From a virus, in IMG/VR virus record IMGVR_UViG_3300045391_003787, positions 1 through 40,131 of that record: a stretch of DNA of 40,131 nucleotides. One strand, given 5' to 3'. The notes beneath the pieces were generated by a model, which saw only the letters and a program-made list of their open reading frames with translations, did no database searches and was not told the origin of the DNA. Position numbers and translations under genes: made by a program. Shown piece after piece: positions 3,332 to 20,391 of the stretch; positions within the stretch are counted from its first letter, which is position 1; each line of letters starts with the position of its first letter.

Positions 3332-5014
3332 ATGGCCTGGTGTTTAACTAAAGATGCAGAAGAAAAATTCTTAAAAGGTCTCCAAGACGGGTCTATTGAT
3401 CCGGCTAAACTCGTTAATATGACGAGCGAGGATAGACGAGCATTTCTTGGCAAATTTGTAGGCGATTGGAACGCTAAGTTTGTTAATACAGAGTTTGAGT
3501 CTAAACTTCTTCTCAAGAACCAGCAACGAGGACTTATTAACTGGGCATCTAAAGCCGCTGGTTTAAAGGAAGCAGCTAGAACTGATTTAGTTGATAAGAT
3601 AAACAAATTAGATAGAGCTTTAAATCCAGAAACAGAAAAACAATTTCTCTCAGATATTGTCCAACGCAGACTTGGGGTTCAAGTTACTCCAGCCGAAGCA
3701 CAAGTTATAACTCAGTATGCTGACAGGTTGAATCAACTATACGACAAAACAAAAAAACCTTTTGAACAATCTCGTCAGTATTGGGAGACAAGACAAGGAT
3801 TGCAAAAGTATATGCGAGATATAACTCCCGAGGCTCTACCTACGACTAAAATTGGTAAAGCTGGGCAACTTGCTTCGGATACTATTTCTATTTTACGGGC
3901 CGTTAAAACAGGTTTTGATTTATCTGCATTAGGTAGACAAGGACGTGCATATTTTGGAACAAGGGAGTGGAACCAAGCCGGTGCAAATTCACTTAGATAT
4001 GCAAAAAGTCAGTCCGCACTCGATAGTTTGGAGACTGATATGATGAGTTCTCCGTATGCTGATTTGATGTTGAAACCAGAGATTAAAAAAGCTCTTGGGT
4101 TAACTTTATTAGGTGAGAAATTCACGGCTCGAGAGGAAACATTTGCTTCTAAAGCTATTGATAAGATCCCTGGATTAAAGCAATCTGAACGTGCTTATGT
4201 CGGGTTTTTAAACGACTTGCGCTATAACCGTTTTGTTAATATTCTTGATAACCTTAAAGCTGCTGGAAACGATATTACTGGGAACACAAAGGCCGTTAAG
4301 GATTTAGCAGAAGTAATTGGTTCGGCGACAGGGCGAGGACATTTAGGGCCAGCCGAGGGAGCCTCGCAAGCCTTAGCTACGGTTCTCTTTTCTCCTCGTT
4401 GGTATGCCTCTCGTTTTCAAGTATTACTTGATCCAGTAACAAGAAGTGGTCCTGCTAGGGTGGAAGCTGCTAAAAATATTATGAGGTTGGCTGGTACTCA
4501 AGCGGCAATTTTGGGGCTTGCTCACATGGCTGGCGCAAAGACGGAAACCGATCCTCGTAGTTCTGATTTTTTAAAGTCTCTAGTTGGTAATACAAGATTT
4601 GATACGACAGGCGGAATCGGCCCATTTATAACCGCTATTGTTAGAACAGAAAAAGTCTTACGAGACCAACCGGCCGTGAAAAGCTCTACTACTGGGAAAA
4701 TAACTAAATTAAATACTGGCAAGTTTGGATCACAAACTTTATTTGATCTTTGGATAAACTTCTTTGCCGATAGAGCCTCTCCTATTGCAAGCATAGTAAG
4801 AGATATTGGTAAGGGGCATGACTTCAATGGTAATCCTGTCAAAATAAAAGCTAACAAAGACTTTGCTAATTATCTAATTACACAACTTGTTGAACCACTA
4901 TTTGCGTCGGACGTTCTCGGTGCATTTAATGACGCAGCCGGTGGTGTCGCTGGTCCACTAAGTGTTCCTGCTTCTTTATTTGGTGTTGGTGTAAATACCT
5001 ATAAGAATAAATAA
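3332..5014 (+). CDS. Virion-module protein of unknown function
   Basis: 560-aa ORF starting 2 nt after the previous stop, in the same operon. Confidence 0.7.
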   Translation: MAWCLTKDAEEKFLKGLQDGSIDPAKLVNMTSEDRRAFLGKFVGDWNAKFVNTEFESKLLLKNQQRGLINWASKAAGLKEAARTDLVDKINKLDRALNPETEKQFLSDIVQRRLGVQVTPAEAQVITQYADRLNQLYDKTKKPFEQSRQYWETRQGLQKYMRDITPEALPTTKIGKAGQLASDTISILRAVKTGFDLSALGRQGRAYFGTREWNQAGANSLRYAKSQSALDSLETDMMSSPYADLMLKPEIKKALGLTLLGEKFTAREETFASKAIDKIPGLKQSERAYVGFLNDLRYNRFVNILDNLKAAGNDITGNTKAVKDLAEVIGSATGRGHLGPAEGASQALATVLFSPRWYASRFQVLLDPVTRSGPARVEAAKNIMRLAGTQAAILGLAHMAGAKTETDPRSSDFLKSLVGNTRFDTTGGIGPFITAIVRTEKVLRDQPAVKSSTTGKITKLNTGKFGSQTLFDLWINFFADRASPIASIVRDIGKGHDFNGNPVKIKANKDFANYLITQLVEPLFASDVLGAFNDAAGGVAGPLSVPASLFGVGVNTYKNK

Positions 5015-5015
5015 T

Positions 5016-5222
5016 ATGGATAGACTGACACAGATAAGAAAGACGTTGGGATTTGCTAAGGATAAAGACTTGGCGATATTCAACGAGCTTACTAACATCA
5101 CTTCCAAACTTGAAGATCTAACTCAAAAAGAGTATACAGATATGTCTTCAACTAATGATCTTCTACAAGAGGTAGTCTCAGAACTTCAGAAACCCACCAC
5201 TGTTCATTTAATCTTAGACTAA
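5016..5222 (+). CDS. Small hypothetical protein
   Basis: 68-aa ORF packed between neighbours. Its stop overlaps the next start. Confidence 0.6.
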   Translation: MDRLTQIRKTLGFAKDKDLAIFNELTNITSKLEDLTQKEYTDMSSTNDLLQEVVSELQKPTTVHLILD

Positions 5223-5662
5223 TGAGAGACATTGAACTCCACATAAAAGCTGACGAGTTCCGAGCTAAGTTAGGCATTAAAGACGGTAAAGATGGTAAGG
5301 ACGGCAAGCAGGGCCCGCCAGGAGAGTCTATTCAGGGCAATAAAGGGGATACTGGTGAACCAGGACCAATCGGACCACAAGGGCCGGAGGGCAAAGAAGG
5401 ACCGGCTGGAAAAGATGGTTCCCCTGATACACCTTTCCAGGTCAGGGATAAACTAGAATCTCTACAAGAAGACGATCGCTTAGATGCTTCGGCTATCAGA
5501 AACCTACCAGAGATGACGCAAAACCCCGTGACTAAGAAGTATTTCTTTAGTGGCGGTGGTGGGAACAAATGGACAATTGGGGGATCTGGTCAAACCTTAA
5601 CTGTCAGCAACACCGCTCCTACCAATCCTGCGGTTGGGGACTTGTGGGTAGACATTACTTGA
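5222..5662 (+). CDS. Collagen-like (G-X-Y repeat) fibre protein
   Basis: The translation has 5 + 10 Gly-X-Y triplets (GKDGKDGKQGPPGES..GNKGDTGEPGPIGPQGPEGKEGPAGKDGSP), encoded at about 5285..5425. Confidence 0.75.
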   Translation: MRDIELHIKADEFRAKLGIKDGKDGKDGKQGPPGESIQGNKGDTGEPGPIGPQGPEGKEGPAGKDGSPDTPFQVRDKLESLQEDDRLDASAIRNLPEMTQNPVTKKYFFSGGGGNKWTIGGSGQTLTVSNTAPTNPAVGDLWVDIT

Positions 5663-5692
5663 CTTTTTTAACCAAAGTAAGACAATTAATAC

Positions 5693-6502
5693 ATGAAACT
5701 CTCGACAGTTATCCCGTCGTATAAAGATCCGAATCTTTTTAAGACTATCGAGGATATTTTAGAGAACAGCGAACTAGGGGATGAGCTAGAGGTCATAGCA
5801 GTTTTTGATGGATATTGGCCAACCGTTCCAGTAATCCAAGATTCTCACGTTAGATACGTCCATTTAGGTAAAAACCGAGGAATGAGAGGAGCAATTAACG
5901 CCGGGGTCGCTGTGGCCCGAGGCGAATTTTTTATGCGCCTGGACGAACACTGTTCTTTTGGTAAGGGATTTGATCGGATCTTAACTAGAGATTGCCAAGA
6001 GAATGAGGTTATGACGGCTCGTCGTTACTTTTTAGATGTCGACAAGTGGGAAGTGATGAAAGATAAGGGATTTGTTGACCATGAAAAGTTATCAATTCAA
6101 AATGTAACCGACACTGTTAAGAAGTTCTCGGGTCGACCCTGGAAAGAACGAGATGAGAAGCAAAAGGATGTGATGCTTTCCGAGACCCAGGCCATGCAAG
6201 GCTCAATGTGGATTGCGAATCGAGAGTTCTACTTAAAGACAGTTGGCGAAATGCAGACCGAAGGTTATGGACCTTTGATTCAGGACTCAGTAGAGGTTTG
6301 CATGAAATACTGGAAGGCTGGTGGACGGTTAATGCTCAATAAAAATACTTGGTTCGCTCACCGCCATCGTGATTTCGGGCGAACTCACAACAACGGCACC
6401 AAAGAGAATCCCGCTAAACAGGATCAGGGTTATAAATACGCACTAGACGTTTGGGGAGATTATTATACTAACGAACTTCTACCCCAATGGTCTAAGTGGT
6501 AG
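5693..6502 (+). CDS. GT-A fold glycosyltransferase with DxH motif (GT2/GT27-like, polypeptide GalNAc-transferase-like)
   Basis: N-terminal VIPSYKD...EVIAVFDG; metal-site motif RLDEHCSF (DEH at 5942..5950); C-terminal block VEVCMKYWKAGGRLMLNKNTWFAHRHR, colinear with the Gal/GalNAc-T motif. It is a paralog of 10619..11605. Confidence 0.7.
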   Translation: MKLSTVIPSYKDPNLFKTIEDILENSELGDELEVIAVFDGYWPTVPVIQDSHVRYVHLGKNRGMRGAINAGVAVARGEFFMRLDEHCSFGKGFDRILTRDCQENEVMTARRYFLDVDKWEVMKDKGFVDHEKLSIQNVTDTVKKFSGRPWKERDEKQKDVMLSETQAMQGSMWIANREFYLKTVGEMQTEGYGPLIQDSVEVCMKYWKAGGRLMLNKNTWFAHRHRDFGRTHNNGTKENPAKQDQGYKYALDVWGDYYTNELLPQWSKW

Positions 6503-6504
6503 CT

Positions 6505-7269
6505 ATGAAAAACCTCTTGGTATTTATAAATCCTCTAAAGACGTTCGAGGGAGCCGACTACTACAAAGAAATACATATCCTAGCGAAGCTGCAGATTGAT
6601 AATAGCCTAGCTTTTGGCTGGAAGCGTGAGGATATTATGATGGTGACTAACTTTCCTTACGAATATAATGGGGTACAAGCTATCGTGGTTCCTGACGAAA
6701 CTTTTGATGCAACCAAGAACACTGTTAGCAAGATCAATGGGATCTTAGCTTTGTTTGATATGGGGCTTATAACTGACGAACTATTTTGGTTCCATGACTT
6801 TGACGCTTTCCAGAACGCTCCTCTAGGAGAAGTAACACTAGGCGACAAGGTACTGGCTCTAACTAACACTACAGTTGATGATAGCCGTCTAAGCACCGGT
6901 GTTCTGTTTTTCTCACAAAGTGCTAGAGATTTATTTACCCAGTTGCAACAAAAGTGTCAGGAGAACTTAGTGAACGAAGAAGTTGGACTGAGACTTTTAC
7001 TCGCTGACCAACCACAACTGCAAGATCAGTTACTACTTTTAAACATCAGCCATAACTTTGCGATCAGAAAACGTCCGGTGGCCGACCAATATCAACAAGC
7101 CGAGAAACCAATAAAAGTTCTCCATTTCCATCCTACTGATAAACGTCTCTGTGATAGTGAACCCACCAAGAACAGTCTTGAGGTGGTATACGGACATAAT
7201 AGTCTAGGCGAATCTCTTTTGGGGGGTGAGTTAGAAGCAAGTTTTTGCAAATATGGTCTGACGGTATGA
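6505..7269 (+). CDS. Putative DxD nucleotide-sugar transferase, paralog family A, copy 1
   Basis: I place the start at ATG 6505 (MKNLL), 3 nt after the upstream stop. The ORF track opens at GTG 6496. Motifs are FWFHDFDAFQN (DxD) and KPIKVLHFHP. It is clearly paralogous to 7266..7997. Confidence 0.55.
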   Translation: MKNLLVFINPLKTFEGADYYKEIHILAKLQIDNSLAFGWKREDIMMVTNFPYEYNGVQAIVVPDETFDATKNTVSKINGILALFDMGLITDELFWFHDFDAFQNAPLGEVTLGDKVLALTNTTVDDSRLSTGVLFFSQSARDLFTQLQQKCQENLVNEEVGLRLLLADQPQLQDQLLLLNISHNFAIRKRPVADQYQQAEKPIKVLHFHPTDKRLCDSEPTKNSLEVVYGHNSLGESLLGGELEASFCKYGLTV

Positions 7270-7997
7270 AGAACCTTTTGTCCTTTACTAATCCTTCTGG
7301 AGAGTTTACCGACGAGGACAAAACACTCGTTAAGATTCATATTGATAACAGCTTAGATTTGGGTTGGAAAAAAGACGACATCTTACTGTTCACCAACTTC
7401 CCTTACGAGTACAACGGAGTTAAAGCTCTACCAGTTCCGGCCTTTGATATAAAGTGGGACAGAACTTCTAATAAAATTCCAGTCATCGAGTATCTACTCC
7501 TTGAGGGAATGTTCCCTGATCTTTACTGGTATCACGATTTTGATGCTTACCAGAATGAACCTTTCGATGAGGCAGAGTTAAGCGGCTTTGATCTTGGTCT
7601 GACCACTTATGGTTATAAGGATCAGATCAATGGTGGTTCATTCTTTTTTCGGGAGAACACTCATGACTTCTTTGATTATCTACTTAATCGTTTGATTCCT
7701 ACTTATCGCACTAGGGCCGATGAAAAGACTATGACTGATATGTGGCGTGAGGGTACTTTAAATAACTGGAACCACAAGATTTTAAACATCACCTATAATT
7801 TCGGTCAGCGTGGACCCAGTCGATGCTACAAACAAGCTGACAAGCCTCTAAAGGTTTTGCATTTCCACCCTTACTATCAGTTCTATCCCCATGACGACAC
7901 CAACATTAACGTCTTCATGCACGGACATAATCAGTGGGGTATTCCCATGATGTCGCAAAGATTAATTGACGTATTTAAGCATCATGGAGTCCAATGA
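7266..7997 (+). CDS. Putative DxD nucleotide-sugar transferase, paralog family A, copy 2
   Basis: MKNLL start at 7266 forms an ATGA overlap with the upstream stop (the track ORF opens at 7245). Motifs shared with copy 1: IDNSL.(F/L)GWK, TNFPYEYNGV, YWYHDFDAYQN, KPLKVLHFHP. Confidence 0.55.
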   Translation: MKNLLSFTNPSGEFTDEDKTLVKIHIDNSLDLGWKKDDILLFTNFPYEYNGVKALPVPAFDIKWDRTSNKIPVIEYLLLEGMFPDLYWYHDFDAYQNEPFDEAELSGFDLGLTTYGYKDQINGGSFFFRENTHDFFDYLLNRLIPTYRTRADEKTMTDMWREGTLNNWNHKILNITYNFGQRGPSRCYKQADKPLKVLHFHPYYQFYPHDDTNINVFMHGHNQWGIPMMSQRLIDVFKHHGVQ

Positions 7998-8664
7998 TCT
8001 AACACTCATAATGCTGACGGCCAACCGAGTACCGGCTGGCTGGGCTGAATTTCATAAAGAAAAACTCCTAGAAGCGGCCCAAGGTAAGCCAATTATTACT
8101 ATTTCCCGTGAGCCTTTAAATTGGGGTATAAACGTCCTTGATACCGAACGGCAGTCTATATCAAATATCTACTTCCAGCTTCTCAGAGGGGCAAAACTAG
8201 CCTCTACACGCTATATAGGAGTGGTTGAGGACGATTGCCTCTATCCAGCCGAGCATTTTGAGTTTAAACCGGCGGATGATGCCTTTTATTACAATGAGAA
8301 TCGCTTCAATGTCTTCACTTGGGGGCGGTCCATGTTTTGCTACAAGAAACGGGTGAGCAATTCTACCTTAATCGCTAATCGAGAATTAGTAATTAAAGCC
8401 TTAGAGGAAAGATTTGCTAAGTGGCCAGACGGAACGCCGACTGGAAACACGGGAGAATTAGGACGAGATAACATCGCTGATAAGTTAGGACTGCCTCATT
8501 ACCCGATGAGACTGTTTGAAACTTACTTTTCTGTAGTTCGAGTTGATCACCAATTAGGGGTAGATAGATTGTCCCGAACTCGTCGCAAAGGACCAGGAAT
8601 GTTAAAATCTTATGAGATCCCTATGTGGGGACGAGCTAAGGATATAGTTAATAAATTCAAATGA
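7984..8664 (+). CDS. Putative glycosyltransferase-like protein, paralog family B, copy 1
   Basis: Probable start at MESNDL (7984); the track ORF opens at 7966. It shares the pattern PII(T/S)(I/V)...P...G.N and acidic-x-D-x-LYP..(H/Y)F (VVEDDCLYPAEHF) with 8661..9332 and 9951..10622. Confidence 0.45.
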   Translation: MESNDLTLIMLTANRVPAGWAEFHKEKLLEAAQGKPIITISREPLNWGINVLDTERQSISNIYFQLLRGAKLASTRYIGVVEDDCLYPAEHFEFKPADDAFYYNENRFNVFTWGRSMFCYKKRVSNSTLIANRELVIKALEERFAKWPDGTPTGNTGELGRDNIADKLGLPHYPMRLFETYFSVVRVDHQLGVDRLSRTRRKGPGMLKSYEIPMWGRAKDIVNKFK

Positions 8665-9332
8665 CCGCCACAATTGTTTATTGCTCTAGTAATAGGGAAG
8701 ACGAAGCCTTCGAGCGAAGGATAAGAGAGTACTTGTTAAAAAACTGTGGGGGGCTACCAATTATTAGTGTCACCCAAAAGCCTACGGATCTTGGAACTAA
8801 TATTTGTGTAGGTGATGATATCGGGGTGTCAGGTTTTAATTTCTTTCGCCAGTGGCAGATTGGTTTAGAGGTCGCCAAAACGGATCTTGTGATTTCTGCC
8901 GAAGCCGATTGTCTTTACCCACCAGATTATTTCCAGTACCGCCCGCCTCGTTTAGACAAGTGCTATCGAAACTCCAACCTCTATGTGATGCCTGATTTGC
9001 GGAGTTTCTTTTTCAAGAAGTCAGAAGGAGCCACACACGCTCAAGTTATCGGACGAGAATTCTTTCTAAATAGATTAAACGAACTTTTCGTAGGAGCTCC
9101 CGAATGGTCGGCTGAGGAAAAGAACTTTCCTAAAGAGAGATGGAAGCAAGAAGATATTTTTTCTGAAGCCGAGATAGAGATGTATGAATCAGAGAACCCC
9201 GTCTTTCAGGTCAAAACCCATAAAGGGATGCGCTATTACACTCATTCAGATCGAACCCCTATCCCCGAGATAAAATATTGGGGCAATGGTACACCACTTC
9301 GTAATTATTTAATTAAAGGAATAGAAATATGA
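8661..9332 (+). CDS. Putative glycosyltransferase-like protein, paralog family B, copy 2
   Basis: ATGA overlap with the upstream gene. Motifs GLPIISVTQKPTDLGTNI and SAEADCLYPPDYF match copies 1 and 3. Confidence 0.45.
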   Translation: MTATIVYCSSNREDEAFERRIREYLLKNCGGLPIISVTQKPTDLGTNICVGDDIGVSGFNFFRQWQIGLEVAKTDLVISAEADCLYPPDYFQYRPPRLDKCYRNSNLYVMPDLRSFFFKKSEGATHAQVIGREFFLNRLNELFVGAPEWSAEEKNFPKERWKQEDIFSEAEIEMYESENPVFQVKTHKGMRYYTHSDRTPIPEIKYWGNGTPLRNYLIKGIEI

Positions 9333-9949
9333 CATTTAAAGAAGGACTAACACACTACGGCTTGCCTTACGAAATACCCGACTGTTCTCGGAATGGGCTG
9401 CCCCAATTCTTGGTAGACTCTGGTTATAAGGTCGGGGCCGAGGTTGGAGTTTATAAAGCCGAGTACTCCGAACGCTTCGCTAAAGTCGGTTTAAAACATT
9501 ATGCCATTGATCCTTGGATGGCTTTCCCGGGACAAGGACGGACCCAAAAGGTTCAGGAGAGACAAGAATTTTTATACGGTCATGCGCAGCGAGTCTTGGC
9601 TCCTTATCCCAACTGCACCATGATTCGTAAAACTTCGATGGATGCTTTAGCTGATTTTGCAGATAACAGTCTTGATTATGTGTACTTGGACGGCGATCAT
9701 TCCTTTCGCTTTGCAGCCGAGGATATAGTGGAATGGTCTAAGAAAGTCCGCCCGGGTGGAATCGTTGCCGGACATGATTATTGGAACACCGGACCCGATA
9801 AGTGGAACGTAGTTTGTCAGGTTAAAGCTGTTTTGGACGCATACATTAAGGTCTTTGAGATTAAGAGCTTTTACATCTATGGCAAGATGCACCCATTAGA
9901 CGAGCAGAAGAAAGACGATAAATTCCACAGTTGGTTATACATCAAATAA
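9329..9949 (+). CDS. Class I SAM-dependent methyltransferase (Methyltransf_24 / TylF-like O-methyltransferase)
   Basis: Motif I-like VGAEVGVYKAEYS and the characteristic YVYLDGDHSFRFAAEDIVEWSKKVRPGGIVAGHDY block. It is embedded in the glycosyltransferase cluster. Confidence 0.7.
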   Translation: MTFKEGLTHYGLPYEIPDCSRNGLPQFLVDSGYKVGAEVGVYKAEYSERFAKVGLKHYAIDPWMAFPGQGRTQKVQERQEFLYGHAQRVLAPYPNCTMIRKTSMDALADFADNSLDYVYLDGDHSFRFAAEDIVEWSKKVRPGGIVAGHDYWNTGPDKWNVVCQVKAVLDAYIKVFEIKSFYIYGKMHPLDEQKKDDKFHSWLYIK

Positions 9950-9950
9950 T

Positions 9951-10622
9951 ATGGATGGAATCCTGTATTACTCCGACAATACTTTTGAGGGGCCAATCTT
10001 CCAAGAGGTTCAAGACATCTTGAGTGGTACAGGATTACCGATCGTTAGCGTGACACTAAAGCCCCTGAAGTTTGGACAGAATATCGTGATGGATTTGCCT
10101 CGTTGTTATCCGACGATGGTTAAACAAATTATTGCTGGTTTGGAAAGTTTGCGAGTGCAGAATGTATTTTTTACTGAGCATGATGTTTTGTACAGCCCGT
10201 CTCATTTCTCGTTTGTTCCTCCTCGTCACGATATCTTTTATTACGATACTAATGTTTGGCGGTGGGATTATCCCAAAGAGAGGTACTTCACCTATGACCG
10301 CCTGCTTTGCTTGTCGATGATGTGTTGTGATAGAAAATTAGCTCTGGAGCATTACAAGAAGCGGTTGGAGATAATTCAAGATAATGGCTGGGATTTTCCT
10401 ACCAAAGGAGAACCAGCTTGGCAACGACGAATGGGCTATGAACCTGGTACTAAAAAGAAAAAGCGAGGGGGATTTACAGATGACGACTTTGAGACTTGGG
10501 CAGCCCCGCACCCTAGTATAGATGTTCGACACAAAGGGACTTTTTCTCCACCTAAAGTTAATTTACAAGATTTTAAATGGGAACCTACCGGCTGGCAGGA
10601 AACCACTATTAAACCTATATGA
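9951..10622 (+). CDS. Putative glycosyltransferase-like protein, paralog family B, copy 3
   Basis: Motifs GLPIVSVTLKPLKFGQNIV and FFTEHDVLYSPSHF align with copies 1 and 2. Confidence 0.45.
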   Translation: MDGILYYSDNTFEGPIFQEVQDILSGTGLPIVSVTLKPLKFGQNIVMDLPRCYPTMVKQIIAGLESLRVQNVFFTEHDVLYSPSHFSFVPPRHDIFYYDTNVWRWDYPKERYFTYDRLLCLSMMCCDRKLALEHYKKRLEIIQDNGWDFPTKGEPAWQRRMGYEPGTKKKKRGGFTDDDFETWAAPHPSIDVRHKGTFSPPKVNLQDFKWEPTGWQETTIKPI

Positions 10623-11605
10623 GAGATATATCAATCGTTATTCCGGCCAGGAACGAGGAGTTCTTAGCCAGAACTATTCAAGACATCTTAGAACACATTG
10701 AAGCCGATACCGAGATCATCGCTGTGTTAGATGGTCAATGGGCAGCCCCACCTATTGTTCAGCATGAACGAGTTAATGTTATCTATGTTCCAGAAGCTGT
10801 CGGACAAAGGGCCGCTGGGAATATTGGAGCTCGATTGGCGCAAGGAAAGTATATCTGGAAGTCTGACGCTCATTGTTCTTTTGATCAAGGGTTTGACCGT
10901 AAGATGTTAGAGTTCTTTAAAGAGGTGGGTGACGACGTAACAGCCGTGCCGATAATGAAGAACCTCCATGTCTTTGATTGGAAATGTTATTCCTGCGGTC
11001 ATAAAGAATATCAAGACAAGTATCCTCAAGCGGAAGACAATGCTTGTAAAAGTTGTGGGGCAAAGAACGTCAAAAAGAAGATGATTTGGCAACCCAAAAA
11101 AGGTACTCATGCTAGAGCTTACTGCTTTGATGCCTCTCCTAAATTTGGCTACTTCGAGCCATGGGAACACACTCCTGAGTACAAGAAAGACTTAGCAGAG
11201 AAAGGGTATACCGAATCCATGAGTTTACAGGGTAGTTGCTTTGTCTTAACTAAAGAAAAGTACTTCTCTCTACCAATTTGTGATGAAACGCTAGGTAATT
11301 GGGGAAACCAGGGAATCGAAGTTGCCTGTAAAACCTGGCTGTCTGGTGGACGTGTCTTAGTAAACCATAAGACCTGGTACGCTCATTGTTTTAGAACTAA
11401 ATCTGAGTTTGGTTTTCCCTGGCCGGTGTCCGGACGGGATCAAGAGAAAACCAAGAAGAACGTCAGGGATCTTTTGTGGGAAGGAAAGTTCGATAAAGCT
11501 GTCCGTCCAGTGAGTTGGTTGGTAGAAAAGTTCTGGCCAGTGCCAGGTTGGACCGAAGCAGACCTAAAACAGCTCAAAGAACACGAAGCAAATCTTCGTA
11601 AATAG
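10619..11605 (+). CDS. GT-A fold glycosyltransferase with DxH motif (GT2/GT27-like, polypeptide GalNAc-transferase-like) carrying an inserted Cys4 zinc ribbon
   Basis: SIVIPARNEE...EIIAVLDG; KSDAHCSF (DAH at 10865..10873); GNWGNQGIEVACKTWLSGGRVLVNHKTWYAHCFR, resembling WGGENxExSFRxWxCGG...GHxFR; inserted CYSC..(18 aa)..CKSC at 10985..11056. Confidence 0.7.
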   Translation: MRDISIVIPARNEEFLARTIQDILEHIEADTEIIAVLDGQWAAPPIVQHERVNVIYVPEAVGQRAAGNIGARLAQGKYIWKSDAHCSFDQGFDRKMLEFFKEVGDDVTAVPIMKNLHVFDWKCYSCGHKEYQDKYPQAEDNACKSCGAKNVKKKMIWQPKKGTHARAYCFDASPKFGYFEPWEHTPEYKKDLAEKGYTESMSLQGSCFVLTKEKYFSLPICDETLGNWGNQGIEVACKTWLSGGRVLVNHKTWYAHCFRTKSEFGFPWPVSGRDQEKTKKNVRDLLWEGKFDKAVRPVSWLVEKFWPVPGWTEADLKQLKEHEANLRK

Positions 11606-11624
11606 CCCGTAAAATGCTGAAAAA

Positions 11625-11633
11625 TGGTATAAT
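11625..11633 (+). promoter_or_regulatory. Extended -10 promoter element TGGTATAAT
   Basis: Exact copy of the motif in the 59-nt gap upstream of the 957-aa repeat protein gene. Confidence 0.45.
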
Positions 11634-11664
11634 AAAGGGATTGTGACTAATCCTAATCTTTTAA

Positions 11665-14538
11665 ATGGCTAGAATACACCAATCAGGAGCTGAACATAAC
11701 TCAGTTGTTGATGGAATTGACGACATAATTAGTGCTGGTGCAACCATTGTCACGACCCCTGTCTTGGGTAGTCGTTATGCTTGGAAATTAACTAGTGCGT
11801 CAGGAGCTTCATCAGTAGCATCTTACGCTCGTTTCGGTCACGCCAATTCAACCGGAGCAGCGGTTTATTATAAATGGGATTTTCAAGTAGATACTACTGG
11901 AGCGTTCTGGTTGTGTCAGTTTGCTTTTGGAACAACAAAGCGTGGTGGAATTAGATTTACAGGGGGAAAGTTACAATTAGCAACAGATATTACAACGGGC
12001 GTTGGGGCAACTTCGGTATCTGTTACCACTGGAGTTTGGCACACCTGTCAGGCTAAGTATGATGCGGCAACGGGAAATGCAGAATTTTATTTAGATGGGG
12101 TTCTGGTTGATACCGGACAAAACGTAACCACCGCCGGAAATAATGTAGACAATCTTTATATTGGTCAGTTTCAGCCAGTCAATAGCAATATGTACGTTGA
12201 TAATATTATTGTCAACGATACTACTGGTGCTAATGAGACTGGGTATCCGGCAAGGGGTGAGAGATTTGTAATTCTCTACCCCAATGCCGTAATGACCGAA
12301 GCGGCTACCGTGGGTGGTGCGCCTGGAGATGTTTATTTTAGAACCTCGGCAGGTGGTGCAGGGTCCGGTACAACATCTAACTGGAATCAAGTTGAGGAAA
12401 CCGATCCTGATGGTGATACTTCTTACGTTAGGAAAAACGCTAGTGAATCTAACCGTGATTGGTATCCGGTAGAAGATATTGCCACAGTTGGGTTTCCAGC
12501 AACGACAGATGAGGTGAATGTTGTAGCGGTTGGTGGTTATGTTGGAGGGAACGGAACCACCGATAGGTTCTTTAGGTATTTATACGAAACAGCAGCCGGA
12601 GCAACCGGGCTTCAGCGGTCCGCCAGCGTCAACGCCAACGTCAACGCTTATTTCCTATATAAAATTGGCGGTGTTGCTGGTGCTGACCAACAGTTACTTT
12701 CTTATCCTTCGGGTTCCGTTGGATCAGACCTAGATACCTATCAAATTGGTTGGGAAGCTAACGACGCTAACGCCCGTCAAATAAAGGGCTCAGCTTTTTG
12801 GCTGGAAGTTTCTTATATCGCTTCGGGTGTTTCTACTTCCCCTTCAGTCTCACCATCAATCTCTAAATCACCGTCCGTCTCTCCGTCCGTATCCGTCTCC
12901 CCCTCGGTTTCGGTCAGCCCTAGTATTTCTAAATCCCCTTCGGTTTCGCCGTCGGTATCACCATCGGTATCAGTCTCTCCAAGTATCTCCGTCTCTCCAA
13001 GTGTTTCAAAATCACCGTCAATTTCACCTTCCGTAAGTCCGAGTGTCTCCGTGTCCCCCAGCGTAAGTGTTAGTCCCTCGGTTTCTAAATCCCCTTCCAT
13101 CAGTCCGAGCGTTAGCCCCTCGGTATCAGTCTCCCCCTCAGTATCAGTTAGCCCAAGCTCTAGTTTATCTCCCAGCGAATCTCCTTCCGTTTCGCCCTCG
13201 GTTTCCACCTCCCCGTCCGTTAGTGTCTCACCTAGTGGTTCTCTATCACCTAGTATCTCACCAAGCGTTAGTCCCTCAGCTTCGACAAGTCCTTCGATTA
13301 GCGTCTCGCCGTCGTCGTCTTTATCTCCCTCGATCAGTCCTTCCATCTCACCTAGTTCGTCAGAAAGTCCCTCCATCAGTCCAAGTTCTTCGATCAGCCC
13401 GTCGGTGTCCCCATCGGTATCGGTGTCTCCATCAATCAGTGTTTCACCCTCGGTTTCTGTATCTCCCAGTTCTTCTCTATCACCCTCCCTTTCTCCGAGC
13501 GTTAGCCCCTCCGTCAGTGTTTCTCCTTCTGTTTCAACCTCTCCTTCGGTTTCTACTTCCCCATCTGTTTCTGTTTCACCTTCAAGTTCAATATCGCCTA
13601 GCGTATCGCCATCTAGTAGTGCGTCTCCATCTGTTAGCCCTTCGGTTAGTACCTCGCCTAGCGTTTCCACAAGTCCTTCGATTAGTGTTAGCCCTAGCAG
13701 TTCTGAGTCACCCAGTGTCTCACCGTCTTCATCTTTATCACCGTCTGTCTCTCCGAGTGTTTCTACCAGCCCTTCAATCTCTGTATCCCCAAGTTCGTCA
13801 GAGTCTCCTTCCGTTTCGCCTTCCAGTAGTGTCTCTCCTTCCGTAAGTCCAAGCGTAAGTACTTCACCTTCCGTCTCAGTTTCTCCTAGTGTTTCAACCT
13901 CGCCTAGTAGTTCATTAAGCCCCAGCATTAGCCCCTCTGTAAGTCCCAGCTCTAGTGAATCACCATCAGTCAGTCCCTCCTCATCAACTTCGCCCAGTGT
14001 CAGCCCCAGTGTCTCCACTTCCCCATCAGTTAGTACTTCCCCATCAGTAAGTGTCTCACCGTCGTCTTCTATTAGTCCCAGTGTCAGCCCGTCGGTTTCC
14101 ACTTCACCCTCACTTAGCCCTAGTGTCAGCACTAGTCCCTCAGTCTCGGTGTCGCCGAGTAGTTCACTTAGTCCATCTACGTCGCCATCGGTCTCAGTAA
14201 GTCCATCAACATCGCCGAGCGTTTCCGTTTCACCCAGCGTCAGCGAATCCCCCTCCATCAGTCCATCTATTAGTGCTAGTCCCAGTACCTCCCCCTCGGT
14301 ATCAGTATCACCTTCGGAATCCCCAAGTCTCAGTCCCTCAGTCTCTCCGAGTATCTCTTTTAGTCCTTCAATATCCCCATCGCCCTCTGCTCCAGCCTTT
14401 ACAGCTACTTTATATGAATGGAACGGCACTATTTGGATAAAGAAAGTTATGAAGTATTACAATGGGTCAGTTTGGATTAATAAGCCCCTTTACTATTGGG
14501 ACGGGTCAGCGTGGGTTGCTGTAGATAATTTAGGCTAA
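11665..14538 (+). CDS. Large virion surface or fibre protein: N-terminal LamG/concanavalin-like domain, (Ser-X)n tract of about 520 aa, and short aromatic C-terminal repeats
   Basis: 957-aa ORF. The N-terminal roughly 385 aa has a LamG-like pattern (WHTCQAKYD..GNAEFYLDGVLV...NLYIGQF...MYVDNIIVND). Residues about 389-908 have Ser at every second position. The C-terminus has three Y-x-(W/Y)-(N/D)-G-(S/T)-x-W units. Confidence 0.8.
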   Translation: MARIHQSGAEHNSVVDGIDDIISAGATIVTTPVLGSRYAWKLTSASGASSVASYARFGHANSTGAAVYYKWDFQVDTTGAFWLCQFAFGTTKRGGIRFTGGKLQLATDITTGVGATSVSVTTGVWHTCQAKYDAATGNAEFYLDGVLVDTGQNVTTAGNNVDNLYIGQFQPVNSNMYVDNIIVNDTTGANETGYPARGERFVILYPNAVMTEAATVGGAPGDVYFRTSAGGAGSGTTSNWNQVEETDPDGDTSYVRKNASESNRDWYPVEDIATVGFPATTDEVNVVAVGGYVGGNGTTDRFFRYLYETAAGATGLQRSASVNANVNAYFLYKIGGVAGADQQLLSYPSGSVGSDLDTYQIGWEANDANARQIKGSAFWLEVSYIASGVSTSPSVSPSISKSPSVSPSVSVSPSVSVSPSISKSPSVSPSVSPSVSVSPSISVSPSVSKSPSISPSVSPSVSVSPSVSVSPSVSKSPSISPSVSPSVSVSPSVSVSPSSSLSPSESPSVSPSVSTSPSVSVSPSGSLSPSISPSVSPSASTSPSISVSPSSSLSPSISPSISPSSSESPSISPSSSISPSVSPSVSVSPSISVSPSVSVSPSSSLSPSLSPSVSPSVSVSPSVSTSPSVSTSPSVSVSPSSSISPSVSPSSSASPSVSPSVSTSPSVSTSPSISVSPSSSESPSVSPSSSLSPSVSPSVSTSPSISVSPSSSESPSVSPSSSVSPSVSPSVSTSPSVSVSPSVSTSPSSSLSPSISPSVSPSSSESPSVSPSSSTSPSVSPSVSTSPSVSTSPSVSVSPSSSISPSVSPSVSTSPSLSPSVSTSPSVSVSPSSSLSPSTSPSVSVSPSTSPSVSVSPSVSESPSISPSISASPSTSPSVSVSPSESPSLSPSVSPSISFSPSISPSPSAPAFTATLYEWNGTIWIKKVMKYYNGSVWINKPLYYWDGSAWVAVDNLG
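12831..14388 (+). repeat. Coding tract for strictly alternating Ser-X repeats (SPSVSPSVSVSPS...)
   Basis: Read directly from the translation. The DNA copies are degenerate, with all six Ser codons and all four Pro codons used within the first 100 nt. Confidence 0.95.
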
Positions 14539-17592: not shown

Positions 17593-17979
17593 CTACAGGG
17601 CCAGGTACTTTTCTTTATAAAGGTCAATCCTTTTCCGCAAATCTAAGGCAGAATATTTAACCAGCCGGTACTTTTCCTTGTTTAGAGTCTCTAATATTCG
17701 AGCACCGTATTGTTGTTTTAATTTAATAGAATATTCATCCATGTTTCCTTTTTTAAAAACATTACATCCTACGCATTGAACATGGACATTGCGCTCATCC
17801 CATCTAAGTGATAACCAATTACGAGGGACGTAATGACCTGCCTGCATTTCCTTCCAATTGGCTCGCTTCCCACAGGTATAACAAGTACAAATCAGATCCT
17901 TGGAATTCTTGAGTCGGATGTACTCCGAAAAGATCTTATCTAGTTCTCGTTTAAGTTGGGCGTAGGTTTTCTTTTTCAT
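17593..17979 (-). CDS. ninG: NinG-like recombination protein
   Basis: The pattern LDKIFSEYIRL...CYTCGK...GHYVPR...RWDERNVHVQCVGCN matches my recollection of the lambda NinG family. I place the start at ATG 17979; the track opens at TTG 17985. Confidence 0.6.
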   Translation of the reverse strand: MKKKTYAQLKRELDKIFSEYIRLKNSKDLICTCYTCGKRANWKEMQAGHYVPRNWLSLRWDERNVHVQCVGCNVFKKGNMDEYSIKLKQQYGARILETLNKEKYRLVKYSALDLRKRIDLYKEKYLAL

Positions 17980-18149
17980 TGGCAATGAGAACAGAGTCCT
18001 TTTATATTAGCAAAAATCATCACATGACAAACACAACTGCAAATAGAGGGGATGGGGATTTCAAAAGTGAAAGTCTGTTCTTCAACCATGGGTATTTCTA
18101 CGCCACAGTCTTCGCAGTGGACCTTCTCGTTGCATTTATCGCACAGCAT
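17976..18149 (-). CDS. Cys-rich zinc-finger miniprotein (57 aa)
   Basis: Hand-translated as MLCDKCNEKVHCEDCGVEIP...CSCVCH...LCSHCQ, with an ATGA overlap with the ninG start. Confidence 0.5.
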   Translation of the reverse strand: MLCDKCNEKVHCEDCGVEIPMVEEQTFTFEIPIPSICSCVCHVMIFANIKGLCSHCQ

Positions 18150-18408
18150 CGATTAATTTGCTTAAAACTTCTCTGGCTTTAGTACCGTCTAGGTTATCTA
18201 GATGGGCGATGGCTTCTTGTATCTTAACACGAACAGCCTTCACATAGTGCCAGCTGTCAACTATCTCCTCTTCGATTGCTCCGATAAGATTAGGGCAGTC
18301 TAAAATACTACCGCCGCCGTGTTCATTGCGGCCTTGGTCGAACTTAATCGGAGCACGGTTGGCGAAATCGTCCGCCGCTCCATCTCTAAACTCTTCGGGA
18401 GTGATCAT
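18136..18408 (-). CDS. Hypothetical protein (90 aa)
   Basis: ORF within the tightly overlapped minus-strand operon. No confident family assignment. Confidence 0.6.
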   Translation of the reverse strand: MITPEEFRDGAADDFANRAPIKFDQGRNEHGGGSILDCPNLIGAIEEEIVDSWHYVKAVRVKIQEAIAHLDNLDGTKAREVLSKLIDAVR

Positions 18409-18644
18409 ACGTCTTTTATCTTTCTTATTTTAATAAGCCAATGACGAGGTATGACGGTGATATCTCCTTGTTCTTGATCGTCAGTGATATCAGAGACTAC
18501 GATAACACAGTCTTTATCCTTATAAATCTTTATACCTAGGGTCTTTCTTTTAGAGAGGTGCCTTTTGTAAGGTGGTTTTAAAAACTTAGACAACTCTATA
18601 TTGGAGTGTCCGGTAGCGTCTAACCATGAGACTTCGTAAATCAT
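18405..18644 (-). CDS. Hypothetical protein (79 aa)
   Basis: ORF with 4-nt overlaps on both sides. Confidence 0.6.
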   Translation of the reverse strand: MIYEVSWLDATGHSNIELSKFLKPPYKRHLSKRKTLGIKIYKDKDCVIVVSDITDDQEQGDITVIPRHWLIKIRKIKDV

Positions 18645-19528
18645 ATCGTAGCGTTGATTTTGACGCTAGCATATCCGTGCCAGTTTATATTGGGCTTTGC
18701 GTTAATAGTTGGACTACCCAGGGCCACTGGGACCATCGCCCCTTTTTCAACATATCCCCCTTGAAATCTACCGTCTCGTTTTGAATTTTGCATATAGCCT
18801 TTGAGATAAGACCCCGTAGAGACTAGTGTTATTTCTCTGTCCCTAAGAAATGGTTCTTTACCATGTTCTCCAAATACGGCTTCTACTCTGTTTAATTTTT
18901 TACTCGCTAGTGTATGCGTGTGGGCCATAAGCATCAGGTCGGCGTTAAATGAAGGGCTTAAGTTTATTAATTTACGGATTGGGTCAGAGGCGCTTGAGCC
19001 ATGGTGGCACCAGATTATAAAAGATGGGGTTTTGTGTTTACCTGTATTTTCAAATTCCACCTGAATCATGGCACATTCCCCAAGAAAAGGGGCTTTTAAA
19101 AAGGTGCAAAGTCTAGTGTCGGAAGTTCCTCCAGTTGAGAACTCCCAATAATGATGACCCTGTAGGAGCCCCAACCAGCGTCCACGAGTCGGTTCGAGTA
19201 TCTTTTGGATGAAAGCTAAATGGTCCTCAATTTTAGCCTCCAGAGCGTCATTAAACGAGTCATACTTAACCATAGCCTTATAGTTCTCTCGGTTAGAAGG
19301 ACTGGCTACATCTAAATAATCCCCCATGCCTATATAGTAAACATCGGGGGACTTACTGGTCTCTTTTATTAACTTGTCTAGATCTTCCCAGGCACTTCTG
19401 TTCGTTCCATCGTATTGTATGTCGCCTATCGGTATAATCGTTATTCCACGTTTAGGAAGATGTCTACGCCGGACAGTTTTCTGTGGTCTAAATTCGTCTT
19501 CCAAGTAAGGAAACGATTCTAATTGCAT
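18641..19528 (-). CDS. Calcineurin-like metallophosphoesterase
   Basis: Ordered motifs IPIGDIQYDG, GMGDYLDV, LLQGHHYWEF, WCHHGS and LMAHTHT match the metallophosphatase signature. Confidence 0.75.
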   Translation of the reverse strand: MQLESFPYLEDEFRPQKTVRRRHLPKRGITIIPIGDIQYDGTNRSAWEDLDKLIKETSKSPDVYYIGMGDYLDVASPSNRENYKAMVKYDSFNDALEAKIEDHLAFIQKILEPTRGRWLGLLQGHHYWEFSTGGTSDTRLCTFLKAPFLGECAMIQVEFENTGKHKTPSFIIWCHHGSSASDPIRKLINLSPSFNADLMLMAHTHTLASKKLNRVEAVFGEHGKEPFLRDREITLVSTGSYLKGYMQNSKRDGRFQGGYVEKGAMVPVALGSPTINAKPNINWHGYASVKINATI

Positions 19529-19551
19529 CAGGAAAATCCTTTCATATCTTT

Positions 19552-19560
19552 ATTATATCA
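19552..19560 (-). promoter_or_regulatory. Extended -10 promoter element (TGATATAAT on the minus strand)
   Basis: The reverse complement of attatatca is TGATATAAT. It lies in the 35-nt gap upstream of the phosphoesterase gene. Confidence 0.45.
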
Positions 19561-19563
19561 TAT

Positions 19564-20204: not shown

Positions 20205-20217
20205 ATCAGTCTTGCTT

Positions 20218-20391
20218 TTAGTCCTGTTTATACAGTGTTTGCCGAAAGACCCTACCTAATTCACCCCGTTTATTTTTTGCGGTGCCTGGCACCATTTTAG
20301 TAATCCACTTCTTAAAAAATCTAAATTCCTTATCTGACATTTCTTCGTGTTCGTAGATAGTAAGACGTGCTCGTATTTGTGGTTTTTTCAT
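20218..20391 (-). CDS. Small basic hypothetical protein (57 aa)
   Basis: Hand-translated codon by codon as MKKPQIRARLTIYEHEEMSDKEFRFFKKW.... It fills an otherwise empty gap. Confidence 0.4.
   Translation of the reverse strand: MKKPQIRARLTIYEHEEMSDKEFRFFKKWITKMVPGTAKNKRGELGRVFRQTLYKQD

Follow-up and report, generated by a model that had tools for sequence, protein, structure and literature searches.

An eight-gene cassette lies within the late structural operon of a circular phage genome

The window (the whole 40,131-nt stretch of DNA analyzed, IMG/VR record IMGVR_UViG_3300045391_003787) holds a complete 40-kb phage genome, and a 69-bp exact overlap between its ends indicates that this genome is circular. 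A Patescibacteria (CPR) bacterium is the probable host. The gene order begins with TerL, portal, and major head protein and, after further genes, continues with fibers, the cassette, the Ser-X repeat gene SX1, a holin-like gene, and an M23 endolysin. The cassette, part of the late operon, comprises eight tightly packed genes (g1 to g8) at positions 5693-11605; all eight open reading frames were found on the + strand where an earlier note on this DNA had placed them, and the surrounding gene order bears out its view that they sit inside the virion module. As that note had also described, the cassette is bordered upstream by a collagen-like fiber gene (5222-5662, + strand; Pfam Collagen, 5.5e-7, and PHROG tail fiber families) and downstream by the gene for the first Ser-X protein (11665-14538), and most of its genes overlap at stop and start: neighboring genes either overlap by 4 nt (ATGA type) or are separated by 1 to 2 nt. 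The cassette is thus translationally coupled within the operon. The likely true starts of g2, g3, and g4 are ATG 6505, ATG 7266, and ATG 7984, respectively. Read from ATG 7266, g3 is database protein P0241; the g4 frame is open from TTG 7966, and its start was picked by comparing orthologues in alignment A2.

No membrane segments were found in any of the eight proteins, and the cassette contains no undecaprenyl-phosphate priming enzyme, lipid-carrier, flippase, or polymerase gene, which disfavors lipopolysaccharide (LPS) or teichoic-acid chemistry. Genes for a hydroxymethylase or for nucleotide modification were not observed next to it. The phage does not encode nucleotide-sugar synthesis; thus, the cassette must use host donors and is not fully the self-contained pathway that had been proposed.

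The end genes resemble polypeptide GalNAc-transferases

The products of g1 (5693-6502, + strand; Pfam Glycos_transf_2, 2.7e-13) and g8 (10619-11605, + strand) are predicted to be soluble DxH glycosyltransferases of the GT-A type. They are paralogs, as had been suggested (30% identity; E = 2e-29), and among relatives g1 is always the first gene of the cassette and g8 always the last. The metal motifs were correctly located beforehand, with D84-E85-H86 at 5942-5950 in g1 and D83-A84-H85 at 10865-10873 in g8. Each protein has a downstream histidine (H223 in g1 and H256 in g8), and g8 also carries a WGNQGIE..WLSGG block. The D and H of the motif are invariant, together with H256, among 30 g8-type sequences, while D84, H86, and H223 are at least 95% conserved among 77 g1-type sequences.

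A phmmer search of the Protein Data Bank (PDB) with g8 returned almost only polypeptide GalNAc-transferases (ppGalNAc-Ts; best E = 4.4e-8), as did the g8 family profile, and the g1 family profile matched GalNAc-T4 (7e-12) over residues 3-257, the whole catalytic domain. When an AF2 model of g8 (pLDDT 90.8) was compared to the PDB with Foldseek, the top 50 matches were all ppGalNAc-Ts of family GT27 (E = 9e-18 to 1e-14; TMq 0.57-0.69), the eukaryotic enzymes that initiate O-glycosylation of the mucin type. The proposed likeness to this family therefore holds in sequence for both end genes and in predicted fold for g8 as well, and the best full-length matches are protein O-GalNAc transferases rather than the DNA-base, LPS, or teichoic-acid glycosyltransferases that the earlier note had named as counterevidence.

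Like GT27 enzymes, g1 and g8 combine a GT-A catalytic domain in which the DxH is followed by a Cys (D-A/E-H-C) with a Gal/GalNAc-T block (WG..G.E...K.W..GG) and a downstream His-x-F/H-R, and their presumed acceptors are dense, Pro-rich Ser tracts. The eukaryotic family differs from these prokaryotic or viral proteins, whose donor and acceptor are putative, in several respects. The phage enzymes are soluble, about 270 to 330 amino acids long, and only 15 to 20% identical to GT27 members; they lack the C-terminal ricin-type lectin domain, signal anchor, and Golgi topology. In addition, g8 is interrupted by a zinc ribbon with four Cys (C123, C126, C143, and C146; about 10985-11056), an insertion that occurs in no ppGalNAc-T. 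No g8 homologue was matched by tblastn in 50,697 deposited phage genomes. In domain architecture and inferred location, both proteins match what has been published for the GT60 polypeptide alpha-GlcNAc-transferases of protists; these GT27-related initiators lack the ricin domain, and some, including Skp1 Gnt1, are soluble and cytosolic (PMC8724618). However, GT60 enzymes come from eukaryotes, and the one for Skp1 modifies hydroxyproline. A GT-A fold gives no reading of acceptor specificity, and the acceptor of a GT27-like enzyme could be a glycan.

The inner genes encode two further glycosyltransferase-like families and a methyltransferase

The tandem DxD paralogs that had been noted are g2 (6505-7269, + strand), which carries the motif as HDFD, and g3 (7266-7997, + strand), with 36% identity (E = 5e-47). 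Paralogy and the invariant H-D-x-D of their family suggest putative GT-A, GT77/Nucleotid_trans-like elongating transferases. The GT77-like signal is weak: PF03407 was matched weakly in 9 of 34 family members (best, 2.8e-4), g3 itself falls under the Pfam cut-off (E = 0.07), and no confident fold assignment was obtained for either protein.

The third family of paralogs was likewise recovered, comprising g4 (7984-8664), g5 (8661-9332), and g7 (9951-10622), all on the + strand (20 to 26% identity by MAFFT; pairwise phmmer E = 1e-11 to 1e-16). The AF2 model of g7 (pLDDT 94.6) matched BoGT6a, alpha3GalT, PBCV-1 A64R, and SpsA in Foldseek, with E values in the 1e-4 range and TM scores of about 0.5, and an E76-x-D78 motif is invariant. 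On this modeling, the ExD family is predicted to adopt a GT-A fold, a prediction extended from g7 to g4 and, by paralogy, to g5. g7 is a core component that usually adjoins g8; its family was found in 75/80 viral loci and, with g7 as the query, in 71/80 CPR loci.

The remaining gene, g6 (9329-9949, + strand), encodes a class I SAM-dependent methyltransferase, presumably a sugar O-methylase, and is present in 63/80 CPR and 68/80 viral loci. Its assignment to Methyltransf_24 was upheld (Pfam, 1.4e-13), but no match backs the TylF likeness proposed with it, and its sequence matched nothing in the PDB.

PHROGs labels the g6 family "DNA methyltransferase," and phage glycosyltransferases classically modify DNA or O-antigen. 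Furthermore, the N-terminal halves of the enzymes weakly match generic GT2 polysaccharide enzymes. These points would fit a non-protein acceptor, through either DNA hypermodification or synthesis of a cell-wall or LPS/teichoic-acid-type polymer. We consider this highly improbable, given the full-length sequence and fold matches of the end genes, the lack of hydroxymethylase or nucleotide-modifying neighbors, and the lack of a priming enzyme, flippase, or transmembrane protein. Moreover, the cassette belongs to the structural rather than the replication module, and its chromosomal copies, described below, adjoin Ser-X proteins.

Three phage proteins carry long Ser-X tracts

The candidate substrates are three proteins encoded on the + strand. 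SX1 (11665-14538) is fiber-like, with an N-terminal globular domain (phrog_14065), an unbroken 520-residue Ser-X tract (amino acids 390-909; nt 12832-14391), and, at its C-terminal end, an xxWNGxxW repeat. SX2 (32107-32844), a small protein from the structural module whose gene lies two genes past that of the major head protein, ends in a 104-residue Ser-X tail (nt 32524-32835) and is 46% identical to a tail-less paralog encoded next to it in the head gene cluster (31673-32095). SX3 (33637-37032) has 1131 amino acids and is encoded after an adaptor-like gene; its Ser-X region spans 686 residues (nt 34609-36666), and its C terminus holds repeats that contain Trp.

The alternation is perfect over all 520, 104, and 686 residues, with a Ser content of 51 to 53%. 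Pro occupies position -1, +1, or +3 relative to 94 to 98% of the serines, and these are positions at which ppGalNAc-Ts prefer Pro around an acceptor Ser. All six Ser codons are in use and the tracts contain no long DNA tandem repeats, indicating that the alternation is maintained at the level of the protein.

The cassette is linked to Ser-X genes in viruses and CPR bacteria

The pairing of cassette and Ser-X gene recurs in about 130 other phage contigs and many CPR chromosomes. The earlier note had held that relatives with the cassette but no Ser-X protein would speak against its reading; in loci that extend 8 kb or more downstream, the g8-type gene is followed by a same-strand Ser/Thr-X repeat ORF in 30/31 viral and 27/31 CPR genome loci. 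None of 80 CPR loci has such an ORF in the 10 kb upstream. In L170 and L169, the nearest relatives readable there, an SX1 orthologue directly adjoins the cassette. A close relative, L001, has no SX gene in the 20 kb examined, with 17.7 kb of its contig outside the search. The linkage is shared by phages that differ in virion architecture and by several classes of CPR bacteria. In viral loci, genes for an SU10 adaptor, portal, tail tube, and capsid lie close to the cassette.

This linkage is correlative, and the two gene sets might simply travel together, the tracts serving as unmodified flexible or extended linkers while the enzymes build a free or otherwise anchored oligosaccharide. Unglycosylated Ser/Pro-rich linkers do occur, close relatives with experimental characterization are lacking for five of the eight proteins, and co-transfer could account for part of the adjacency. 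A purely passive association nevertheless seems quite unlikely: it would have to persist across these architectures and classes, membrane, lipid-carrier, and export components are absent, and the conserved enzymes are those most like peptide-glycosylating GT27. Unbroken Ser-X tracts of 500 to 2000 residues are seen, and their length together with scrambled codons suggests a selected chemical function of the serines.

In many CPR chromosomes, the cassette and giant Ser-X proteins, which lack signal peptides, have no phage genes within 10 kb, and tatC often comes next after this chromosomal island. Hence, the cassette is not phage specific, and we rejected the idea that it is a phage invention. 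Because it is also found in host chromosomes, the phage copy could act on host proteins. As an auxiliary (moron-type) module, it would remodel the host surface, glycosylating host Ser-X giants or other envelope components rather than the virion, so as to exclude superinfection or alter adhesion. In Patescibacteria phages, ConA-like lectins and sugar genes have been taken as host-surface auxiliary metabolic genes (PMC12911398), and L001 has an integrase. Such a role in place of a virion role appears unlikely, however, since the coupled cassette lies in the late structural operon, between fiber genes and before the lysis genes, and late expression fits virion assembly better than seroconversion. 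Three Ser-X proteins are also encoded by the phage itself, including a paralog of a head-cluster neighbor, and a viral SX gene adjoins the cassette in almost every viral locus. The host-surface and virion roles are not mutually exclusive.

A proposed pathway for glycosylation of virion proteins

The GT27-like end genes, the GT-A inner family, and the Ser-X linkage support the overall reading of the earlier note, in which an O-glycan is built on virion proteins. From sequence and predicted structure, we favor a cassette that is probably a cytoplasmic O-glycosylation pathway for the phage's own SX1, SX2, and SX3. Late in infection, the eight soluble enzymes would be made alongside the structural proteins and fed by host nucleotide sugars. 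g8 and/or g1 would place a first sugar on serine hydroxyls of the (S-P/V/I)n tracts, the five other GT-A-type proteins (g2/g3, DxD; g4/g5/g7, ExD) would extend the glycan, and g6 would methylate a sugar; the assignments of Ser as acceptor, the initiating enzyme, the sugars, and the methylation target are inferred. The products would be mucin-like "bottle-brush" stalks on fibers, roughly 130 to 170 nm if extended, and a glycosylated tail on a protein from the head gene cluster. They may serve in stiffening, in shielding from proteases or antibodies, or in adhesion.

Virus-encoded, host-independent soluble GT-A enzymes and a methyltransferase also glycosylate a virion protein in chlorovirus PBCV-1 (A064R), whose A64R is among the g7 fold matches. 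Glycosylation in PBCV-1 is N-linked and on the capsid protein of a eukaryotic virus, and that system is not known to involve a Ser-repeat substrate or a GT27-like enzyme. Closer in setting, mycobacteriophages (Che8, Rita, and others; Freeman et al. 2023) encode glycosyltransferases that covalently glycosylate their own structural proteins; as summarized in PMC11256854, the glycans are on the major capsid protein, in contrast to the kilobase-scale Ser-X fibers here.

The serine-rich repeat protein (SRRP) systems of Gram-positive bacteria (Fap1, GspB, and PsrP) similarly place several soluble glycosyltransferase genes beside a very long Ser-X dipeptide repeat protein, and they combine GtfA/B, accessory glycosyltransferases, and aSec export, with glycosylation occurring inside the cell before export (PMC6973325, PMC7948813, and PMC5207161). 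The SRRP enzymes GalT1 and GlyE are among the PDB matches of the cassette proteins. However, the SRRP initiator is a GT4 (GT-B) GtfA/GtfB pair rather than a GT27-like GT-A enzyme, and we saw neither SecA2/SecY2 nor an LPXTG motif or signal peptide in the present system. Its repeat proteins are parts of phage virions or are CPR proteins that lack signal peptides. The recurring pairing points to an undescribed prokaryotic mucin-like glycoprotein system, of which we found no description in the literature searched. Accessory genes vary among relatives and include those for an aminotransferase, a C-methyltransferase, UDP-Glc dehydrogenase, and radical SAM enzymes, a variation that would be expected of a surface glycan undergoing diversification.

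The cassette lies in the late operon of a complete circular genome

We consider it probable that the eight-gene cassette (g1 to g8, 5693 to 11605, + strand) encodes a cytoplasmic pathway for protein O-glycosylation that acts on Ser-X repeat proteins; the evidence is entirely computational. Bases 1 to 69 and 40063 to 40131 of the window are identical, and this exact 69-bp terminal overlap indicates that the genome is complete, ~40,062 bp long, and circular (or circularly permuted). The cassette consequently falls close to the 3' terminus of a single uninterrupted late operon, which begins at the large terminase gene (26037 to 27260) and proceeds around the circle through head and fibre genes, including that of the major head protein (30830 to 31639; phrog_267), to the cassette, a 957-residue Ser-X protein, and the lysis genes. 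Other genes in the window encode portal-like, adaptor-like, collagen-like fibre, and holin-like proteins and an M23 endolysin; no tRNA genes were found in it. All eight cassette open reading frames (ORFs) sit exactly where the earlier note had placed them, with junctions that are either 4-nt overlaps or gaps of 1 to 2 nt. Likelier start codons are ATG 6505 for g2, ATG 7266 for g3, and ATG 7984 for g4; from ATG 7266, g3 is identical to database protein P0241. An early region on the opposite strand (17593 to 23949) encodes a DNA methyltransferase-like protein (20441 to 20992; phrog_359, 6e-46) and a repair exonuclease-like protein (18641 to 19528).

The end enzymes g1 and g8 resemble polypeptide GalNAc-transferases

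The genes at the two ends of the cassette, g1 (5693 to 6502; 269 aa) and g8 (10619 to 11605; 328 aa), encode paralogs with 30% identity (E = 2e-29). Both match Pfam Glycos_transf_2 (50.6 bits for g1 and 60.2 bits for g8; cut-off, 23.3), which covers the N-terminal half only. D83-A84-H85 and H256 of g8 are invariant across 30 family sequences, and D84, H86, and H223 of g1 are at least 95% conserved across 77 orthologues. In both proteins, the DxH aligns with the DAHCE motif of polypeptide GalNAc-transferases (ppGalNAc-Ts), so that each carries, within a GT-A catalytic domain, the DxH Mn2+-binding motif of CAZy family GT27. A PDB sequence search with g8 returned almost exclusively ppGalNAc-Ts (best E = 4.4e-8) in alignments spanning the DAHC motif, the WG..G.E...W..GG block, and the H-x-FR histidine, and a profile built from 30 g8 family sequences gave the same outcome. 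By HMMER, g8 residues 194 to 289 (WGNQGIEVACKTWLSGG ... YAHCFR) align to the Gal/GalNAc-T motif region of GalNAc-T1, T2, T4, T7, and TgT3; both this motif and the third metal-ligand histidine of GT27 (GHVFR region) are therefore present. The g1 family profile (16 sequences) aligns with human GalNAc-T4 across its entire catalytic domain (residues 3 to 257; E = 7e-12). When an AlphaFold2 model of g8 (pLDDT 90.8, pTM 0.89) was compared to the PDB with Foldseek, the top 50 matches were all ppGalNAc-Ts (E = 9e-18 to 1e-14; TMq 0.57 to 0.69), among them human T2, T4, T7, T10, and T12, mouse T1, fly PGANT9, and Toxoplasma T3. The closest overall catalytic-domain fold is thus that of GT27, as judged from the model for g8 and from the profile for g1. 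The "GT27-like" recognition made in the earlier note is upheld by PDB sequence, family profiles, and the g8 fold.

Two features of GT27 are absent. Neither g1 nor g8 has a Pfam match to Ricin_B_lectin, and neither contains a hydrophobic segment (maximum KD19, 0.72) that would correspond to the type II membrane or secretory topology of GT27; their context is prokaryotic or phage. Because the lectin domain and secretory topology are GT27 defining, we refer to g1 and g8 as GT27-like and not as members of the family. As lectin-less and anchor-less enzymes, they resemble the GT60 enzymes of protists, which also lack a lectin domain and are partly cytosolic (PMC8724618), and GT27/GT60 is enzymatically the closest family to both. 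The part of the g8 model beyond the catalytic core is helical and family specific. Within the GT-A core, g8 also has an inserted four-cysteine zinc ribbon (aa 123 to 146; window 10985 to 11056), which is absent from g1 and distinguishes g8 from ppGalNAc-Ts; its four cysteines are invariant in 30 g8 family members. This ribbon might bind the acceptor or stand in for the missing lectin domain.

The inner genes encode candidate glycosyltransferases and a methyltransferase

The three ExD paralogs g4, g5, and g7 belong to a family without a match in Pfam, NCBIfam, PHROG, or PDB sequences. The predicted model of g7 (pLDDT 94.6) has a GT-A fold, and Foldseek matches to it include GT6 enzymes, SpsA, and the capsid-glycosylating enzyme A64R of PBCV-1 (E ~1e-4, TM ~0.5). 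E76-x-D78 of g7 is invariant in sets of 35 and of 13 sequences. Based on this model, g4, g5, and g7 are predicted to share a Rossmann-like fold of the GT-A type, in which an acidic DxD-type motif follows the fourth strand. The DxD paralogs g2 and g3 are 36% identical, and H-D-x-D is invariant in their family. The match of g3 to the GT77-like Pfam family Nucleotid_trans (PF03407; 13.5 bits) is below the cut-off of 22, and this family, the sole recurrent one, was weakly matched by 9 of 34 g2/g3 family members (best E = 2.8e-4). No PDB or profile-profile link was found for the g2/g3 family, and hhalign revealed no relation to the g7 and g8 families. From sequence, g2 and g3 are probable glycosyltransferases.

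The earlier note had described g6 as a Methyltransf_24/TylF-like methyltransferase. The first part of that description is sound (Methyltransf_24, 52.1 bits; Pfam cut-off, 26.3), and the second is unsupported, as TylF (PF05711) is not among the Pfam matches. PDB sequence and profile searches with the g4/g5/g7, g2/g3, and g6 families returned nothing significant. Hydrophobic segments are absent from all eight cassette proteins, and no lipid-carrier priming enzyme, flippase, or polymerase is present with the cassette; thus, the acceptor is expected to be soluble. It is very improbable, in our judgment, that this acceptor is something other than protein.

Ser-X repeat proteins of the phage are candidate substrates

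Three proteins of the window carry Ser-X repeats. SX1 (11665 to 14538; 957 aa), encoded directly after g8, contains an unbroken 520-residue Ser-X alternation (nt 12832 to 14391). SX3 (33637 to 37032; 1131 aa), encoded after the adaptor-like gene, has a Ser-X region of 686 residues (nt 34609 to 36666), and SX2 (32107 to 32844; 245 aa) ends in a 104-residue Ser-X tail (nt 32524 to 32835). The tracts consist of 51 to 53% Ser and 19 to 21% Pro, with Pro at position -1, +1, or +3 of 94 to 98% of the tract serines; such a Pro-flanked Ser context is favoured by ppGalNAc-Ts. Signal peptides and transmembrane segments are absent from the Ser-X proteins. SX2 is the second of two tandem paralogs encoded just after the major head protein gene (31673 to 32095 and 32107 to 32844; 46% identity), and only this second copy bears a tail. 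The two therefore form a natural tail-bearing and tail-less pair that is ideal for testing glycosylation.

All six Ser codons occur in the tracts in comparable numbers, and Tandem Repeats Finder detected short, weak repeats only and no long DNA tandem repeats. The Ser-X pattern is thus kept at the protein level, and we rejected recent DNA slippage as its source. These properties suggest selection for the amino acid pattern and against recombination-prone DNA repeats.

With these proteins as substrates, GT27-like g8 and/or g1 would initiate on serine with host UDP-sugars, the five other GT-A-type proteins would elongate the glycan, and g6 would methylate a sugar. The outcome for the phage would be fibres with mucin-like stalks, together with a protein, encoded in the head gene cluster, whose tail is glycosylated. 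Alternatively, the cassette might remodel the host surface, which is how sugar genes have been interpreted in published surveys of CPR phages (PMC12911398). The late-operon position of the cassette and the presence of candidate substrates encoded by the phage itself both weaken this explanation, and we regard it as unlikely.

The C terminus of SX3 (36703 to 36912) has short Trp-containing repeats of the SSWTNQDKN type, and that of SX1 (14392 to 14538) has the Trp-containing repeats YEWNGTIW, YYNGSVW, and YYWDGSAW. Such C-terminal repeats and modules of Ser-X proteins are possibly binding or anchoring modules. Long antisense ORFs at 12813 to 14429 (-) and 34596 to 36611 (-) were dismissed as composition artefacts, as the Ser-X frame is the one that continues into the globular domains on either side; a further spurious ORF crosses a Ser-X region at 13067 to 13846 (+). 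Sharp negative GC-skew dips at 13 to 14 kb and 35 to 36 kb arise from the same regions. At the chromosomal locus L007, a public gene caller had called antisense fragments (L007:12554-13357 [-]) in place of an 883-aa Ser-X ORF, indicating that Ser-X proteins are probably under-annotated in databases.

Viral relatives keep the module beside Ser-X genes

The g8 family comprises 4685 database proteins, the best 120 of which are 60 to 83% identical to g8; g7 and g3 have 630 and 388 relatives, respectively. Among 50,697 deposited phage genomes, there was no match by blastn of positions 5000 to 12000 or by tblastn of g8. In BFVD, the viral protein A0A516LS96 matches g8 (E = 1.5e-18), and the remaining matches are generic GT-A proteins from uncultured phages. 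In IMG/VR, 131 viral contigs were found by a profile scan. In phage-like contigs, g1-type and g8-type genes always bracket the module, and g7-type and Methyltransf_24 genes almost always lie within it, alongside a variable content of aminotransferase, C-methyltransferase, AsnB-like enzyme, UDP-glucose dehydrogenase, radical SAM/SPASM enzymes, and extra glycosyltransferases. SU10-adaptor, portal, tail-tube, and capsid genes adjoin the cassette in viral contigs, so the module is embedded in the structural regions of phages of differing architectures. The closest relative (L170; g8 83% identical) has a window-like layout including an SX1 orthologue. In L169 that orthologue lies directly upstream of the cassette, and no SX1 orthologue was found within the 20 kb examined of L001.

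Among the viral loci retained, 31 extend for 8 kb or more beyond the g8-type gene. A Ser/Thr-X repeat ORF follows that gene on the same strand in 30 of these, within 1.5 kb in 24, and no well-covered viral locus was found without one. A long Ser-X repeat substrate encoded beside glycosyltransferases is the arrangement of the SRRP system of Gram-positive bacteria, in which Ser-X repeat adhesins are glycosylated intracellularly by a clustered set of glycosyltransferases (PMC6973325, PMC7948813). Functionally, SRRP is the closest bacterial counterpart of the cassette. The two differ in that SRRP initiates with a GT4 pair (GtfA/GtfB) and exports via aSec (SecA2/SecY2), neither of which the cassette has; no GT4 or Sec family match was found among its eight proteins.

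Virus-encoded virion glycosylation is also known from chloroviruses, and, to our knowledge, there are very few systems in which phage enzymes glycosylate phage virions. In mycobacteriophages, such glycosylation is reported to be on the capsid protein (PMC11256854). If our reading is true, the catalogue of virion glycosylation gains a large, environmentally abundant group, with thousands of homologues and ~130 IMG/VR contigs, from phages whose hosts would belong to the least understood bacterial radiation.

L001 carries ERF and tyrosine integrase genes (L001:17251-19754), so that some members of the lineage are temperate. In L007, a 199-aa protein (L007:422-1021) is encoded immediately before the chromosomal cassette, and its C terminus (…IYFNPSADYLTHA) resembles that of the 978-aa collagen-like fibre of L001 (L001:2-2938; …LYFAPSNDYVTHT), which hints at fibre-module exchange between phages and chromosomal islands.

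Related modules occur on CPR chromosomes

The module had been presented as a phage system, and this specificity was not borne out: when GTDB was scanned with a single genome for each species, at least 80 genomes carried chromosomal g8 relatives that are 51 to 63% identical. Many of these records are labelled Patescibacteria/CPR (Davies-, Levy-, Woese-, and Roizmanbacteria, WWE3, several Parcubacteria groups, and Saccharibacteria), and the cassette-bearing genomes include two complete chromosomes of ~0.9 Mb each. Loci that bear the label "uncultured Gammaproteobacteria/Pseudomonadales" are similarly numerous. For four loci so labelled (L030, L033, L058, and L060), TatC is 54 to 71% identical to that of a Woesebacteria chromosome, suggesting that these labels are wrong. 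One of the four records is a "chromosome" of 938 kb, a length usual for CPR genomes.

A search around 80 CPR loci revealed no TerL, portal, or capsid genes like those of the window; the flanks are cellular, with TatC, sensor and regulator genes, dockerin/cohesin, and ComM. PHROG scans of ten cellular Ser-X N-terminal domains gave a single match, to a family of unknown function, and a phage derivation of the chromosomal islands is thus not supported. A Ser/Thr-X ORF follows the g8-type gene in 27 of the 31 chromosomal loci with at least 8 kb downstream and was found in the 10 kb upstream in none of 80. The cassette kept without a Ser-X protein, which the earlier note would have counted against itself, was therefore not the pattern on either viral or chromosomal loci. 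Linkage of the cassette to Ser-X genes without any enzyme-substrate relation is also unlikely, and we rank it just below host-surface remodelling.

The cellular Ser-X proteins are 560 to 2660 aa long and lack a signal peptide. Their N-terminal domain is globular, and they end in one of two conserved modules of ~60 aa (IPSWN..GRPK..GFN.ET..LE.W.G..W..LPMKKI or ELKTINGL..SIKTVNGL). In nine CPR loci, the gene immediately after that of the giant Ser-X protein, in the same orientation, is tatC (L034:16892-17635, L030:18883-19725, L033:15632-16381, L042:18309-19040, L051:19728-20492, L058:10502-11257, L060:16936-17709, L065:18660-19457, and L053:12070-12825). Overall, 12 of 80 CPR loci and 0 of 80 viral loci have tatC within 10 kb, and TatA is encoded at L007:1-148. 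This linkage could reflect conserved synteny or Tat exit of cytoplasmically glycosylated Ser-X proteins; a twin-arginine signal peptide was not seen in the cellular Ser-X proteins.

Mucin-type O-glycosylation is treated as a eukaryotic innovation, and our full-text literature search found no paper that connects Ser-repeat glycoproteins or GT27-like enzymes with CPR bacteria or with phages of these bacteria. We tentatively propose, at slightly less than even odds, that CPR bacteria and their phages have a genuine prokaryotic mucin-type system, in which soluble GT27-like enzymes, possibly near the ancestry of GT27/GT60, densely O-glycosylate Ser-X tracts of 100 to 2000 residues. Glycan-coated fibres would then occur on virions and on cells, where several lineages encode them immediately before tatC, and phages would build or disguise their fibres with a variable version of the pathway that they carry themselves. 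A prokaryotic family with GT27 as its best structural match and linked mucin-like substrates makes the origin testable by phylogeny and enzymology. The giant Ser-X proteins and the cassette probably represent a major feature of the surface of uncultivated CPR cells, of relevance to episymbiotic attachment, and small, soluble, lectin-free putative peptide glycosyltransferases could be useful for glycoengineering in E. coli.

Many cellular g8 homologues are 550 to 670 aa long, with an uncharacterised C-terminal extension of ~250 aa. The g8-type ORF of a Woesebacteria MAG (L050:10001-13543; 1181 aa) contains an intein (Intein_splicing, 1.4e-12; Hint), and a stop-to-stop ORF at L013:9992-11998 fuses a glycosyltransferase with UDP-glucose dehydrogenase.
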